A stretch of DNA of 57,561 nt from Thermoanaerobaculia bacterium (GTDB lineage Bacteria > Acidobacteriota > Thermoanaerobaculia > Gp7-AA8), in NCBI GenBank assembly GCA_016650215.1, contig JAENWF010000033.1, positions 1-57,561 on the forward strand, in the 5' to 3' direction. The translations under genes were made by a program, and so were the position numbers. Shown here in pieces: positions 40,899 through 47,099 of the stretch. Under the pieces are notes generated by a model, which ran no database searches, was not told the DNA's origin, and saw only the letters and a list, made by a program, of their open reading frames with translations. The first letter of the stretch is position 1, and each line of letters begins with the position of its first letter.

Positions 40899-41134
40899 GC
40901 CCGAGCCCCAAACAGCGCTTCGATCTCGCTCTCGCCCATCCGATCAAAGTCTTTCGGAACTGCGATCTCTCCGGCCATAAAGCCGAGGCGTTGCGGCGAA
41001 GAAGGCGCATCGAGCGCCGCTACTCTAACCAGCGGCTTCCCGGCTTTCGCAATGACGAACGACTCGCCCTTCGCAGCCTGATCGACCAGCTTGGAGAGCT
41101 GCGTCTTGGCTTCGTGGATGTTGACTGTAACCAA
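40895..41134 (-). CDS. type II antitoxin, Phd/YefM-type
   Basis: VTVNIHEAKTQLSKLVDQAAKGESFVIAKAGKPLVRV. No ATG is available. TTG at 41134 has GGAG 6 nt upstream, and the ORF-track TTG at 41146 has none. Confidence 0.8.
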   Translation of the reverse strand: MVTVNIHEAKTQLSKLVDQAAKGESFVIAKAGKPLVRVAALDAPSSPQRLGFMAGEIAVPKDFDRMGESEIEALFGARA

Positions 41135-41149
41135 TGCTGGCTCCAATAA

Positions 41150-41171
41150 ACTAAGTTGAGAGGACTAAGTT
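41150..41171 (-). promoter_or_regulatory. direct repeat ACTAAGTT-N6-ACTAAGTT upstream of the antitoxin, a candidate TA operator
   Basis: Copies at 41150-41157 and 41164-41171 in an AT-rich patch adjacent to the RBS. Confidence 0.4.
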
Positions 41172-41342
41172 CTACACGGTCATCGCCGGCGCGTCAACCG
41201 GCAAACGGATCGCGCCGGTGAGCAACTCCGGCGTCATCCCTTGTTTGATTGCAGGAGACTTGGCCAGCTTCGTTTCCAACGCCGCCACACAAACTTCAAG
41301 CGCGGAATGACGCGCTACACTGATTCTGAAATGGAGCGACAA

Positions 41343-42101
41343 ATGACGAAGCCTCTTATCGGCATTGGAGCCGACGTCAAAGTGACGGCAGGCAAGCGCG
41401 ACCGCGCGTTCGGGTACATGACCTACATCGAGGCGCTGCGGAGCGCGGGCGCGATTCCGGTTCTGCTCCCGCCGCAGCCTGAGAACGCGGCGGCTGTCAT
41501 GGCTGCGCTCGACGGGCTCGTGCTCGCAGGTGGATTCGATTGCGACCCTTCGATCTGGGGCGAAGAGGCGCATCCGAAATGCGAGCGGATGGATCCGCGG
41601 AGGCAGAGCAATGATCTTGCGCTCGCGCGGGCAGCGCACGAACAGCGAGTTCCCGCGCTCGGCGTCTGTCTCGGGCTGCAGATCATGAATGTCGCCAACG
41701 GCGGCACGCTGATGCAGGACATCGACTCCGAAGTGAAGACCGACATCCGCCACGGGAGCGATCCGAGCGACCGCGCGCGCCACGACATCGCGATCGAAAG
41801 CGGGACGCAACTCGCCTCCATCCTCGGCGCCGGCACCTTCAACGTGAATTCTTCGCACCATCAGGCCGTCCGAAACGTTGCGAAGGGCTTCCGCGTCACA
41901 GCGTATGCGCCCGATGGAATCGTTGAAGGTCTCGAGGATCCGAAGCATCCGTTCTATCTCGGCGTGCAGTGGCATCCCGAGGATATGGGCGGGGATGAAT
42001 CGGCGACGGGACTCTTCGCCGCGTTCATCGAGGCGGCGCGCGCACATGCACTGCGCCGGCTCGGTACTCTGTCACCGGCCGGTGTCAGCGTCTCGGAATA
42101 G
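41343..42101 (+). CDS. gamma-glutamyl-GABA hydrolase-like class I glutamine amidotransferase (peptidase C26)
   Basis: LGVCLGLQIMNVANGG (nucleophile Cys), NSSHHQAV, GVQWHPE. ATG at 41343 follows GGAG. Confidence 0.85.
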   Translation: MTKPLIGIGADVKVTAGKRDRAFGYMTYIEALRSAGAIPVLLPPQPENAAAVMAALDGLVLAGGFDCDPSIWGEEAHPKCERMDPRRQSNDLALARAAHEQRVPALGVCLGLQIMNVANGGTLMQDIDSEVKTDIRHGSDPSDRARHDIAIESGTQLASILGAGTFNVNSSHHQAVRNVAKGFRVTAYAPDGIVEGLEDPKHPFYLGVQWHPEDMGGDESATGLFAAFIEAARAHALRRLGTLSPAGVSVSE

Positions 42102-42146
42102 CGGGAGAATGCTTCGCAGTTTGCGAATTCGACGGAGGGTCCCTTC

Positions 42147-42992
42147 TTGAAACGTACCGCAACGCTGTTGGCGCTGATCGCGCTGACGATCGTGCCACAG
42201 GCTCAGGCCGGCACGGGATTCATCAAATCGCTCGCTGCCGCCGAGAAAGAGGCGAAAGCGAAGAAGCAGATGATCTTCGTCGACATGTTCGCGCAGTGGT
42301 GCGGATGGTGCCATCGCTTCGACAAGGAAGTGGTTCCGTCGGAAGTGTTTCAGAAGGCCACCGCGAACATGGTGCTTCTGCGCCTCGACACCGAGGATGC
42401 CGCGGAGGGGACGCGATTCGCGCAGAAGTACAAGATCTCGTCGCTTCCGACGTTTCTGGTTCTCAATTCCGATCTCAGCCTCGCGGCGGTGATCCGCGGC
42501 TACGCCCCGGCCCCGCAGTTCGTACAGATGCTCAACGGCGCACTCGAGCGGGACCTGGCCTTCAAGAAACTCGTCGCGTCCGAAAAACTGCTCCAGAAGG
42601 AATACGGCAAGCGGCTGGAGATCGCCGGGCAGTTCCGCGAGCGGCAGGCGTACGGTGAGAGTGAGACGCGGCTCAAGAAGCTGGTTGCGGAGAAGAACGT
42701 CCCGGCCGAGTTTCGCGACAAGGCCTTTCTCGAGCTCGCGACGCTATACATGCAGCAAAACCACTTCGAGAAGGTCTTCTCGACTGTCGCGGAGTTCGGC
42801 AAAGTGCAGACCAAGGGCGACTCACTCGAGCGGGCGAAGCTGATGATCAGCGAGGTTTATCTGGCCCAGGGCAACATGAAGGCGGCGATGCGCGAGCTGC
42901 GCAGCTTCAAGAACTCGTATCCAAACTCGAAGATGGCGAGTGAAGTCGCCGGTCTCCTCGTCAGCCTCGAGCGGCAGTACCCGCAGCAGTAG
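42147..42992 (+). CDS. secreted thioredoxin-fold protein with a TPR-like C-terminal half
   Basis: Signal peptide MKRTATLLALIALTIVPQAQA. FVDMFAQWCGWCHRFDKE (CxxC). TTG start after GGAGGG. Confidence 0.8.
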   Translation: MKRTATLLALIALTIVPQAQAGTGFIKSLAAAEKEAKAKKQMIFVDMFAQWCGWCHRFDKEVVPSEVFQKATANMVLLRLDTEDAAEGTRFAQKYKISSLPTFLVLNSDLSLAAVIRGYAPAPQFVQMLNGALERDLAFKKLVASEKLLQKEYGKRLEIAGQFRERQAYGESETRLKKLVAEKNVPAEFRDKAFLELATLYMQQNHFEKVFSTVAEFGKVQTKGDSLERAKLMISEVYLAQGNMKAAMRELRSFKNSYPNSKMASEVAGLLVSLERQYPQQ

Positions 42993-42998
42993 TCGACG

Positions 42999-44213
42999 AT
43001 GATCGCCCGCCTTTTTGTCGTACTCCTCCTCCTGGCTCCGGCCACGTTCGCGCAGAGCGGATTCAGCGCGGCCGACGCGCTGCCGAAAGTCACAATCGAA
43101 GGTGCCGTACACAAACGCACCGGCGACGCGGTCGAGGGAACGATCACCGCGAAGATCGCCGACGGCTGGCACATCAACTCCGCGAAGCCGCTCGATGAGT
43201 ATGCGATCCCGACGGCCCTGACGCTCGACGGCTTGACCGCTACGCTCGTCAACGCTACCTATCCGCAGCACGAGATGCATGCGTTCACATTCAGCGGCGG
43301 CCGCGAGATCGCGGTGTACGCCAGAACGATCTCGATCCCGTTCACGGCGACGCTGAAGGCGGGCGCGGCGGCAATCAATGCGTCGCTTCGCTATCAGGCG
43401 TGCAACGACAGCGTCTGCCTTCCGCCGAAGGACGCGATCGCGACGATCAGTTCGACGCCGGTCGCCGGAGCTCCTGCGACCACCGAAGGATTCGTCCCGC
43501 TGTCGGCCGCTCCCAAAAACTACAAGCCGGTTCCGCAGGACCGTCTTGCCAGGACGTTCGCATCCAGCGGTCTTCCGCTGACGCTCGGCATTCTGTTTCT
43601 CGGCGGACTCGCGCTGAACCTCACGCCGTGCGTCTTCCCGCTGATCCCGATCACGCTCGGCTTCTTCGCAATGCAGAGCGACGGCCGCCGCTCGCGACGA
43701 TTCGCGCTCTCGGCGATGTACGTCCTCGGCATCGTCATCATGTATTCGGCGCTCGGCGTCGCGGCAGCCCTCGGCGGAAAGATGTTTGGCGCGTGGCTGC
43801 AGCTTCCCGCGGTACTCGCGGGCTTCGCGCTGCTCATGCTCGTGCTCGCATCGTCGATGTTCGGCGCGTTCGATATCCAGCCGCCGCGCTGGATTGCGAA
43901 CCGCTCGCAGGGGCGCGCGGGACTTCTCGGCGCGCTGACGATGGGACTCGTGATCGGGATCGTTGCGGCGCCATGCGTCGGACCGGTCGTGATCTCGCTG
44001 CTGACACTCGTGGCGGCGATCGGCAAACCGGTCATCGGCGGCGCGATGTTCGCCGCGCTCGCATTCGGACTCGGCTTCCCGTATCTCGCGCTGCTCAACG
44101 TGCTGCCGCGGCCCGGCGAGTGGATGGTGCAGGTCAAGAAGGCGATGGGCTTCGTGCTCGTCGCGATGGCGTTCTACTTTCTTCGCCCGCTGACCGGCGA
44201 CGTGATCTTCTAG
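42999..44213 (+). CDS. dsbD: DsbD-type thiol:disulfide reductase, alpha domain plus TM1-6, ending at an in-frame TAG
   Basis: Alpha-domain YQACNDSVCLPP. TM cysteines NLTPCVFPLIP and VAAPCVGPV. TAG at 44211-44213 is in the same frame as the next ORF. Confidence 0.8.
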   Translation: MIARLFVVLLLLAPATFAQSGFSAADALPKVTIEGAVHKRTGDAVEGTITAKIADGWHINSAKPLDEYAIPTALTLDGLTATLVNATYPQHEMHAFTFSGGREIAVYARTISIPFTATLKAGAAAINASLRYQACNDSVCLPPKDAIATISSTPVAGAPATTEGFVPLSAAPKNYKPVPQDRLARTFASSGLPLTLGILFLGGLALNLTPCVFPLIPITLGFFAMQSDGRRSRRFALSAMYVLGIVIMYSALGVAAALGGKMFGAWLQLPAVLAGFALLMLVLASSMFGAFDIQPPRWIANRSQGRAGLLGALTMGLVIGIVAAPCVGPVVISLLTLVAAIGKPVIGGAMFAALAFGLGFPYLALLNVLPRPGEWMVQVKKAMGFVLVAMAFYFLRPLTGDVIF

Positions 44214-44219
44214 TGGGGA

Positions 44220-44705
44220 GTGGTCGCGAGCCTGCTGATCGGCGCAGGATTCCTCTTCCTGTCGCGCGGAGCGGCAGGGCGGGCCATGCGGCTCGCGTGC
44301 GCGTTCCTGCTCCTCATCGCCGGTGCCGCGTTCGCGCTTCCTCGCGGAGAGTCGGCGGTCACCTGGCAGAAGTACGACACGAAGACGCTCGCCGCCGCTT
44401 CAGCGGCGGGGAAGCCGGTCGTGATCGACTTCTTCGCCGACTGGTGTCTGCCGTGCAAGGAGCTCGACGCGAAGACGTTCGGAGACCAGCGCGTCGCCAG
44501 AGAGATGGATCGCTTCGTACGGGTGAAGGCCGATCTCACGCTCGCTGACGATCCCGCTACGCTGGCGCTGTCGAAGCAGTACGGAATCATCGGAGTCCCC
44601 GCGGTCGTCTTTCTCGACGCGAAAGGCGAGGAACTGCGAGAGCTGCGCCTCAATCAATTCGAGTCCGCGGATCCGTTCCTCGCGAGACTCAAACAGGCGC
44701 GCTAA
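44220..44705 (+). CDS. two TM helices plus a thioredoxin domain (equivalent to DsbD TM7-8 and the gamma domain)
   Basis: VVASLLIGAGFLFL, LACAFLLLIAGAAFAL, then KPVVIDFFADWCLPCKELD (CxxC). GTG at 44220 is 6 nt after the TAG, in the same frame. Confidence 0.75.
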   Translation: MVASLLIGAGFLFLSRGAAGRAMRLACAFLLLIAGAAFALPRGESAVTWQKYDTKTLAAASAAGKPVVIDFFADWCLPCKELDAKTFGDQRVAREMDRFVRVKADLTLADDPATLALSKQYGIIGVPAVVFLDAKGEELRELRLNQFESADPFLARLKQAR

Positions 44706-44945
44706 TCCTGAGCCGCGAAGACGGCGAAGGATCTTCTGATGTAAGGACGATGCACGTGGCTGCGTCCCTCCCAGCGCTATCAGAAGATCCTTCGCTTCGC
44801 TCAGGATGACAGGACGATGCACGTGGCTGCGTCCCTCCCAGCGCTATCAGAAGATCCTTCGCTTCGCTCAGGATGACGGGACGATGCACGTGGCTGCGTC
44901 CCTCCCAGCGCTATCAGTAGATCCTTCGCTTCGCTCAGGATGCGG
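44706..44945. repeat. family-A long form: one inverted half plus 3 tandem copies of a 67-bp unit
   Basis: The unit GGACGATGCACGTGGCTGCGTCCCTCCCAGCGCTATCAGAAGATCCTTCGCTTCGCTCAGGATGACA occurs at 44745, 44812 and 44879, with 0-4 differences between copies. Confidence 0.92.
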
Positions 44946-44954
44946 GGGGGGCCG

Positions 44955-45695
44955 CTACCTCGGGAACTGGTAAACGAAATTCACGAACACGCGGTTCGTC
45001 TCGAGCTTGATGGTGGACTGCGCGTCGAGGTACTCATACTCGAGCCCTGGCACCGCGCTCCACTGGCTCTCGCCGATCGGAATGATGAAGCCTCCCTCGG
45101 CGCGCCAGCCAGTCATGTCCGCCTGCGAGTTGAATCCGCTGCCGCCAAAGTCCACCGTGCCGGTGTAGCCACGCAGCACGCCGTAGACGCCGAACGGGCG
45201 GTTCGTTGCCGAATGCACGCGCACGCCGCCGAAGATCGCCTGGTAGTCGAAGTCCTCGCCGTCGAACAAGCCGCCACCGAACGCGCTGCCCCCGACCGAA
45301 ATGGTGTCCATCCGGACGCCGCCCTGCAGGTCGAGATAGGGAATCGCGGCCCAACCGACCGACGCCTCGCCACGGTCGCGCGAATACTGGCCGAACTCGA
45401 TCGGGAGAAAGTCGCTGATCTGCAGACCGTTCTCCGGATCGTGGTCGTAGTTGAAATCGATGACGAACGCGCCCGCACGGTACTCGCCTACGAGTCCGAA
45501 GCCGATCTGCCGGCCCGACTCGATCGTGAAGAGATCGATGTCGATGTCGGTCGAGTAACTCGAGAGTCGAGGCCCGATGCGGAAGCCGTCCATCGATGAG
45601 CTGCTGCCTCCGCGCGGTGTCGGTGTGATCATCGACTGCGCTGCGGCGGTGGATGCTGTGGTGAGGATGATGACTGCGATCAGAATCTTCTTCAT
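44955..45695 (-). CDS. outer-membrane beta-barrel protein (porin-family fold)
   Basis: Signal peptide MKKILIAVIILTTASTAAAQS. Alternating beta-strand pattern with Gly/aromatic residues, ending NFVYQFPR. Confidence 0.7.
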   Translation of the reverse strand: MKKILIAVIILTTASTAAAQSMITPTPRGGSSSSMDGFRIGPRLSSYSTDIDIDLFTIESGRQIGFGLVGEYRAGAFVIDFNYDHDPENGLQISDFLPIEFGQYSRDRGEASVGWAAIPYLDLQGGVRMDTISVGGSAFGGGLFDGEDFDYQAIFGGVRVHSATNRPFGVYGVLRGYTGTVDFGGSGFNSQADMTGWRAEGGFIIPIGESQWSAVPGLEYEYLDAQSTIKLETNRVFVNFVYQFPR

Positions 45696-45748
45696 TCGAT
45701 TGACTCCCGCTGGCTCCGCTTGCACACGAATTGCCATATCGTGTCGTC

Positions 45749-46051
45749 ATGACGTTGACACCGAAACAGCGGCAGTACCTGAGAGGCCTCGCGCACCCCT
45801 TTGAACCCGTCGTCCGCGTCGGAAAGGGTGGCGTCAGCCCCAGTGTCATCGCTGAGACGAAAAAGGCGCTGGACTCACACGAGCTGATCAAGATCCGTGT
45901 CGAAGGCGAGGAGCGGAAGACCCTTGTCGAAAAACTCGCGGCTGAGACCGCCTCGGAAATCGCGGGGATCGTCGGAAAGACAGCGATCCTCTATCGGGCG
46001 CGCGAAGATGATCCGGAGATCGAGTTGCCAGAAGCCTCTACCCGATCCTGA
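45749..46051 (+). CDS. yhbY: YhbY/CRS1-type RNA-binding ribosome assembly protein
   Basis: LTPKQRQYLRGLAHPFEPVVRVGKGGVSPSVIAETKKALDSHELIKIRV. The stop codon lies inside a family-A repeat. Confidence 0.85.
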   Translation: MTLTPKQRQYLRGLAHPFEPVVRVGKGGVSPSVIAETKKALDSHELIKIRVEGEERKTLVEKLAAETASEIAGIVGKTAILYRAREDDPEIELPEASTRS

Positions 46052-46106
46052 GCGAAGCGAAGGATCTTCTGATCGCGCCTGGGAGGACGCAGCCACAGCG
46101 GCCGTG
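46044..46106. repeat. family-A long-form copy (inverted orientation) filling a convergent intergenic gap
   Basis: GATCCTGAGCGAAGCGAAGGATCTTCTGATCGCGCCTGGGAGGACGCAGCCACAGCGGCCGTG is the reverse complement of the 67-bp unit at 44745. Confidence 0.85.
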
Positions 46107-47099
46107 TCATTTCTTCACGATCATGACCGGCTGAAGCCAGGCCGTCTTTCCGTTCGAGTCCACGACCCTGGCGCGCACGTAGCCCTCATCACCGCGGACG
46201 AGGTACTCGGATTCATTGGTCAGTGCAGTCTGCAGGATCGCGCCACCGCGGCCGATGTAGGTGGTGCGGTACTTCGTATCGCCGCTCGCTTTGATGGATA
46301 TGCGAAAGGATCTGGCGCTGACGGAAACCTCTGTAATCTCGACACCGGTGGACGCATAAAAATCGCCCCGCTCCATTGCTGCCAGCAGCTCCGGAGCGGC
46401 CAGCTTCTCCGCCCGCACCACCACCCAGCCCTGGCCGGGACGGGCCGCATCTGCGCTCCAGGGCCGCTTGAAGTGATGGGCGTCGTCGACGGCGATCCCG
46501 TACAGCAGCTTCCCCCCCGTCAACAGGATGTCCCAGACCTCTTCCATCGATGGCGCGCCCCCGCCTCCCATGTTGTTGACCAGGGGATGGCCGTTGTAGA
46601 TCTCGAACAGCCGGTCGCGTTCGATCTTCGACAGATCTTCGGCGCTGATCGCCCACCCGTAGTTCGGGTGATTGATGTGCGGGACACCGGACGCTTCGCG
46701 AACGGCGTCAACATTGCGCTGCAGTACGTCGGCCACGCTCGTGCCGCCCTGGGGTTTGACCAGGCGCTGCACATTCAGACCGTTGACGTGAATCGGTTTC
46801 TTGCCGAACCAGTCCGACACTTCCTCACCTCGTATCACCAGGAACTTCTCGTCGGCGGCATGCAGCGCATTCAAGCCGTCGACGCTGGTGAGGAAGTTGT
46901 GGTCCGTCAGGACCAGGAAGTCGTAGTTGTGCTCGCGGTACCAGCGCACCACCTCGTCGGGCGTGCTGTCGCCGTCGCTGTTGAGCGTGTGGGTGTGCGT
47001 GTTCCCCTTGTACCAGCGCCTGGTTGGAGGGGCGTCCTGTGCGGCCGCCACGGCGGCGAATGCCAGAAGGATTACAAGAGTGGCGCGGACTTTCATCAT
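46107..47099 (-). CDS. secreted PHP-domain (CehA/McbA-like) metallohydrolase
   Basis: Signal peptide MMKVRATLVILLAFAAVAAA. YKGNTHTHTLNSDGD, DFLVLTDHN, PHINHPNY, DDAHH. Confidence 0.8.
   Translation of the reverse strand: MMKVRATLVILLAFAAVAAAQDAPPTRRWYKGNTHTHTLNSDGDSTPDEVVRWYREHNYDFLVLTDHNFLTSVDGLNALHAADEKFLVIRGEEVSDWFGKKPIHVNGLNVQRLVKPQGGTSVADVLQRNVDAVREASGVPHINHPNYGWAISAEDLSKIERDRLFEIYNGHPLVNNMGGGGAPSMEEVWDILLTGGKLLYGIAVDDAHHFKRPWSADAARPGQGWVVVRAEKLAAPELLAAMERGDFYASTGVEITEVSVSARSFRISIKASGDTKYRTTYIGRGGAILQTALTNESEYLVRGDEGYVRARVVDSNGKTAWLQPVMIVKK

Follow-up and report, generated by a model that had tools for sequence, protein, structure and literature searches.

A DsbD-type thiol:disulfide reductase gene interrupted by one in-frame TAG codon in the genome of an uncultured soil Thermoanaerobaculia bacterium

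The stretch of DNA analyzed here, referred to below as the window, is 57,561 nucleotides long and constitutes contig C33 (JAENWF010000033.1) of the assembly GCA_016650215.1, a metagenome-assembled genome (MAG) of an uncultured soil member of the Thermoanaerobaculia (Acidobacteriota), with 3.19 Mb in 247 contigs, 87.9% completeness and 63% GC. On its forward strand, at 42999..44705, lies a whole gene of 568 codons for a DsbD-type (alpha-beta-gamma) thiol:disulfide reductase, with one TAG inside it. The upstream piece (42999..44210, its open reading frame (ORF) running to 44213, + strand) encodes 404 amino acids, comprising a signal peptide, the DsbD alpha domain with Cys135 and Cys140, and the transmembrane helices TM1-TM6, a CcdA-like core that carries Cys211 and Cys326. 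It is closed by the TAG at codon 405 (44211..44213, + strand), which is the sole stop between two ORFs that share one reading frame. The next two codons, TGG GGA for Trp406 and Gly407 (44214..44219, + strand), are intact in the DNA, and would be absent from both products if translation restarted at the GTG at 44220. Counted from that GTG, the downstream piece (44220..44705, + strand) encodes 161 amino acids with TM7, TM8 and a thioredoxin-fold gamma domain that contains Cys483-x-x-Cys486 (WCLPC). The sequence across the junction is ...GGC GAC GTG ATC TTC TAG TGG GGA GTG GTC GCG AGC....

The two ORFs are one DsbD gene, cut after TM6 by one TAG. This had been proposed in an earlier note on this DNA, namely that a single DsbD-type gene is carried by two same-frame ORFs with only the TAG at 44211-44213 between them, and it is borne out by the sequence, by Pfam and by a collinear family match. 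The upstream ORF (42999..44213) matches Pfam DsbD_N (6.2e-10) and DsbD_TM (5.9e-45, over profile positions 3-218 of 219), the latter match ending at residue 398, and the downstream ORF (44220..44705) matches Thioredoxin_7 (2.9e-13), Thioredoxin_2 and Thioredoxin. When the TAG is read through, positions 64-572 of the 574 in the NCBIfam DsbD model NF001419 align collinearly with the frame; at 288.1 bits the match stays under the curated cut-off of 330, which makes the window's DsbD a distant acidobacterial branch of the family. Searched against PDB sequences, residues 461-566 hit DsbD gamma domains (E 2.5e-19) and residues 194-391 hit CcdA (5vkv). All the modules expected of a DsbD are present, i.e. 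an alpha domain with its Cys pair, a DsbD_TM beta domain with Cys in TM1 and TM4, and a CxxC gamma domain; their linkage in a single polypeptide is broken by the TAG in this assembly and is found in 40 of 40 relatives. Alignment of 118 sequences revealed that the alpha cysteines (C135/C140), the beta cysteines C211 (TPCVFP) and C326 (APCVGP), and Gly407 are invariant, and 115 of 119 homologues have Trp or Tyr as residue 406. The best-scoring NCBIfam model for the read-through frame (42999-44702) is that of the rhodanese/DsbD-fusion selenoprotein TsoB (NF045694), at 372 bits against a cut-off of 805; this match covers the beta-gamma part only and, judged from the sequence, is a family resemblance and not membership.

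A structure model was computed with AlphaFold from the alignment of 118 sequences, Lys being put in place of the TAG solely to obtain the fold, and had a mean pLDDT of 77 overall and of about 90 near the junction. Its predicted TM helices span residues 192-226, 231-267, 270-287, 307-341, 344-368, 374-394, 401-421 and 428-446, which agrees with the eight-helix architecture of DsbD (the CcdA core of six, plus TM7 and TM8). In comparisons with solved DsbD domains (Foldseek), the gamma domain reached TM-scores of 0.83-0.89 and the alpha domain 0.6-0.7. Codon 405 is placed by the model in the first turn of TM7 (401-421, pLDDT about 90), just past TM6 (374-394), and not in a floppy linker.

The gene directly upstream (42147..42992, + strand), which ends 6 nt before the DsbD start, encodes by Pfam a secreted thioredoxin-fold protein (WCGWC) with a TPR tail. 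By tblastn, a thioredoxin-TPR gene directly precedes DsbD in all 19 of the relatives' loci that were fetched; such a gene is recorded at 638-1501 in L027 and at 638-1504 in L028. Its product is likely a dedicated client or partner of DsbD. The order of genes around the junction, i.e. Peptidase_C26/GATase, thioredoxin-TPR, DsbD, an opposite-strand gene of 250 aa and YhbY, is the same on two sister metagenome contigs. Given this conserved gene order and the upstream thioredoxin-TPR gene, the DsbD genes compared below are true orthologues.

Several further features of the window were recorded. Between 41241 and 44213, the Peptidase_C26/GATase-like gene, the thioredoxin-TPR gene and the upstream piece of DsbD share one frame, each ends in TAG, and the gaps are 45, 6 and 6 nt. 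Right after the DsbD stop, at 44738-44942, there are three tandem repeats with a spacing of 67 nt (aligned over 71 nt, 94-100% identical), and an inverted copy, 83-90% complementary to them, is located at the yhbY end (46034-46096); together these look like a genome-wide REP-like element. A scan of 41000-46200 for promoters and terminators returned nothing informative. At the contig edge (2-408), RibD_C/DHFR-like coding runs from frame 2, which has a stop at 167-169, into frame 1 around 150-170. This frameshift represents a second apparently broken gene on the contig, and is compatible both with genuine pseudogenes and with an imperfect consensus.

In order to learn whether the split is shared, we compared the junction with related genomes and with protein databases. 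The 40 relatives represent 24 genera within the same family and, beyond it, other families of the order and class, and a six-frame search found a DsbD orthologue in every one of them, with no stop at the junction in the best match; the sole stop inside any of the 40 best matches was a TAA in one class-level relative (G038). The best 119 homologues from a protein database of 5.8 billion clusters (479-597 aa; those with names are MAGs labelled Thermoanaerobaculia, and many stem from metagenome assemblies, one of them a farmland sample) likewise all cross the junction without a stop, and thioredoxin-family Pfam domains are listed for all of them except P0081. Identity to full-length, fused homologues was 66-77% over 95-100% of the read-through length, and the only split piece listed beside these best 119 was the window's own 404-aa ORF. 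An exact look-up of both ORF products gave no match in the databases, and an exact-flank DNA pattern with a free codon at the junction gave none in metagenome or genome contigs. Full-length relatives in the database reach at most 77% identity, and a single partial sequence reaches 83%, so that none of those found is from the same species.

The 161-aa piece, used as a query against proteins of 89-282 aa only, had 47 short homologues, most of which come from contigs of about 1-3 kb. Two that lie on longer contigs were looked up and both turned out to be at an edge, P0135 starting at base 13 of its locus and P0123 lying within 1 kb of the end. Standalone TM7-TM8-gamma proteins were on these grounds rejected as evidence for a natural split. 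Separately, we noted that in one relative (G009:C61:5695-6876) the DsbD open frame is 406 aa long and covers beta and gamma (query residues 182-568), with alpha absent from the match. Either this DsbD truly lacks alpha, or the contig or masked bases may account for its absence.

These comparisons refute a conserved natural split: none of the 40 relatives and none of the 119 database homologues is split at this point, and there is no usable Shine-Dalgarno (SD) motif before the GTG at 44220. The earlier note had offered a natural split as one possible explanation, and had named two separate genes in related genomes as the pattern that would make it an ordinary one. As a feature of the lineage this has to be given up, and the pattern found was the opposite, with all 40 relatives fused. 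The note had also suggested comparing whether Trp, Gln or Glu sits at the orthologous codon. Column 405 in the best 119 homologues holds Arg (69), Lys (27), Gln (19) and other residues (4), i.e. mostly Arg, Lys or Gln (115 of 119), and not Trp or Glu.

The likely ancestral codon can be read from the closest sequences. In a maximum-likelihood tree, the window's DsbD is sister to P0004 and P0006, whose DNAs both read TTC CAG TGG GG at the junction and have a gene order identical to that of the window; the next clade has Lys, and the closest genome of the species set reads TTC AAG TGG GGC. TAG is one base from either codon, by a C-to-T transition from CAG or by an A-to-T transversion from AAG. 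The reading frame on both sides of it is well preserved. All columns that are at least 95% conserved are kept in the window's sequence (160 of 160 upstream and 45 of 45 downstream, 205 in total), and the Trp406 and invariant Gly407 codons between TAG and GTG are undamaged. With the topology fixed, the ratio of downstream to upstream terminal-branch length is 1.79 for the window and 1.17 tree-wide, and it ranges over 0.27-2.07 in intact homologues, save for one outlier of 9.8 on a near-zero branch. By these two measures (branch ratio and conserved columns), no relaxed selection was detected on the downstream half. With all conserved columns kept and a branch ratio in the range of intact genes, the lesion is too young for decay. 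Taken by itself, the lack of decay would fit a change that is very recent, a change that is not real, or two pieces that are both still under selection.

The change is unique, one base from the codons of the relatives, and recent. Among the explanations weighed, we regard an ordinary DsbD gene with a very young, genome-specific nonsense codon as the leading one, and put its chances at about even. According to this explanation, codon 405 of the captured genotype would have become TAG through a single base change, from an ancestral CAG (Gln) or AAG (Lys). If the base call is right, ribosomes would stop after TM6, and the main product would be the alpha domain plus the six-helix core, without TM7, TM8 and gamma. 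The DsbD relay, from cytoplasmic thioredoxin to beta, gamma and alpha, and on to clients such as CcmG, would then be broken or crippled in that genotype. We infer both the reality of the allele, as opposed to a consensus error, and this functional effect. Of the four options listed in the earlier note, the natural split falls with the fused relatives and read-through has no support, which leaves a nonsense mutation and a sequencing error.

An error is the strongest competitor of the nonsense allele. The TAG could stem from a sequencing, assembly or consensus error, or from a minority strain variant that entered the MAG consensus, and the organism's DsbD would then be intact and fused; we consider this possible, and somewhat unlikely. 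DsbD is universally conserved in the lineage, where it is fused and mostly single-copy (a single DsbD_TM match in 17 of 25 relatives, and more than one in the other 8 of 25), neither half of the window's gene has decayed, and neither split product occurs in any other database assembly, all of which speak for an error. Only one DsbD_TM-family gene was found in the assembly, which is 87.9% complete, such that a paralogue could be unassembled. The same genome carries genes of the Ccm system I for cytochrome c maturation (G000:C44:8244-12008), with a CcmC-like protein of 262 aa, a CcmF-like protein of 676 aa and an adjacent thioredoxin-like gene, and no match to ResB was found in it. System I cytochrome c maturation depends on DsbD or CcdA (PMC4460558). 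With a sole DsbD_TM gene and Ccm present, a null allele should be costly, and this cost puts more weight on an error, a minor allele or residual function. The assembly is also fragmented, and the frameshifted RibD_C-like gene at the end of the same contig means that gene-breaking lesions or errors are not unique to the TAG site. Against an error stands the local sequence, which has no homopolymer or repeat hinting at an error-prone site. Moreover, substitution errors are rare in short-read consensus sequences at normal coverage, and genuine pseudogenes with a single nonsense codon are common in bacterial genomes.

A further explanation accepts the TAG as real and has translation re-initiate 6 nt downstream, at the GTG at 44220, with the TM7-TM8-gamma piece working in trans with alpha-TM1-6. 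This we think unlikely. In such a two-piece protein, TM7-TM8-gamma would insert with its N- and C-terminus both periplasmic, and the loop between TM7 and TM8 (SRGAAGRAMR) is basic, which would fit the native topology for a standalone hairpin. The cut comes right after the six-helix core, which in CcdA is a complete protein (compare the end of the DsbD_TM match at residue 398 and the span of 5vkv, 194-391), the GTG follows two codons past the stop, and the DsbD gene seems indispensable, being the sole DsbD_TM gene in a genome with Ccm and mostly single in relatives. Katzen and Beckwith (2000) reportedly regained activity from E. coli DsbD domains that were expressed separately. The superfamily also includes domain-split relatives (PMC3322552). 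However, no relative or database homologue is split at this point, and a restart at the GTG would lose codon 405 (the K405 of the model), W406 and the invariant G407, residues near the beginning of a helix that is modelled with confidence. The signals for initiation are equally unfavorable, with no GGAG or GAGG at 4-10 nt before either the GTG at 44220 or the internal ATG at codon 430; the sole GGAG overlaps the GTG itself, whereas the SD motifs of this genome sit 4-10 nt upstream of starts. The GTG at 44220 also just encodes Val408, the residue usual in the family (97 of 119), and an ATG, GTG or TTG occurs within the next three codons at 14% of the codon positions of this gene, and its nearness to the stop is therefore no evidence of design. 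A stronger form of the explanation, in which the TAG is real and fixed in the species, the restart at GTG 44220 is SD-independent and the hairpin docks in trans onto alpha-TM1-6, strikes us as improbable.

Full-length DsbD would be the normal product if the TAG were decoded in a programmed way, whether through pyrrolysine, a suppressor tRNA, a reassigned code or regulated read-through. This is the least likely of the explanations. The TAG column holds Lys, Arg and Gln, and pyrrolysine is a derivative of lysine. A tRNA-Gln(CUG) is present in the genome, and a near-cognate tRNA of this kind can misread UAG at low frequency; we infer that such misreading could, in principle, restore the Gln of the sister lineage. 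Yet TAG serves as a normal terminator here, closing about a fifth of the long ORFs genome-wide and at least 10 other probable genes of the window, including the two directly upstream of DsbD. The 36 tRNAs found by ARAGORN in the 87.9% complete genome include none with a CUA, UUA or UCA anticodon, the PylS model has no match in the same 87.9% complete genome, and TAG stands at this position in none of the 40 relatives and none of the best 119 homologues. The base after the TAG is a T, reportedly a strong termination context in E. coli (Poole et al. 1995). Code reassignment, pyrrolysine and a suppressor tRNA were rejected on the normal use of TAG as a stop and on the lack of PylS and of a CUA tRNA, and the read-through raised in the earlier note found no support in any of these features; recoding as a whole is, in our view, highly improbable.

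Compared with known systems, the window's DsbD has the same three modules, six relay cysteines and eight predicted TM helices as the E. coli and Neisseria DsbD proteins (PDB 1vrs, 2fwe, 1l6p, 6dnu), from which it differs in that, as assembled, its polypeptide is cut at the start of TM7. [quoted passage not shown] Naturally split ScsB systems, in which a separate ScsB-alpha occurs with CcdA or with ScsB-beta-gamma (Cho et al. 2012, PMC3322552), show that modules of the DsbD superfamily can be separately encoded. The ScsB splits fall between whole domains and are conserved across species, whereas the split in the window falls inside beta, between TM6 and TM7, and consists of one stop codon in one genome.

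Taken together, the finding is an ordinary one, and nothing found here favors the two-piece protein over a trivial lesion or error. It carries little weight for biology, and somewhat more for annotation, where the locus is best described as a single DsbD gene that contains an internal stop, be it a pseudogene or a low-quality base, rather than as two genes, one for a CcdA-like protein and one for a membrane thioredoxin. If a two-piece DsbD did exist, it would show by a natural example that the beta domain tolerates a break where the CcdA core ends, and would be a snapshot of gene fission, in which the presumed history of fusion from CcdA to DsbD is reversed. If the nonsense allele is real and common, it would be a small natural experiment on how well DsbD tolerates a cut after its CcdA-like core, and such tolerance would bear on the origin of DsbD from CcdA by domain accretion.
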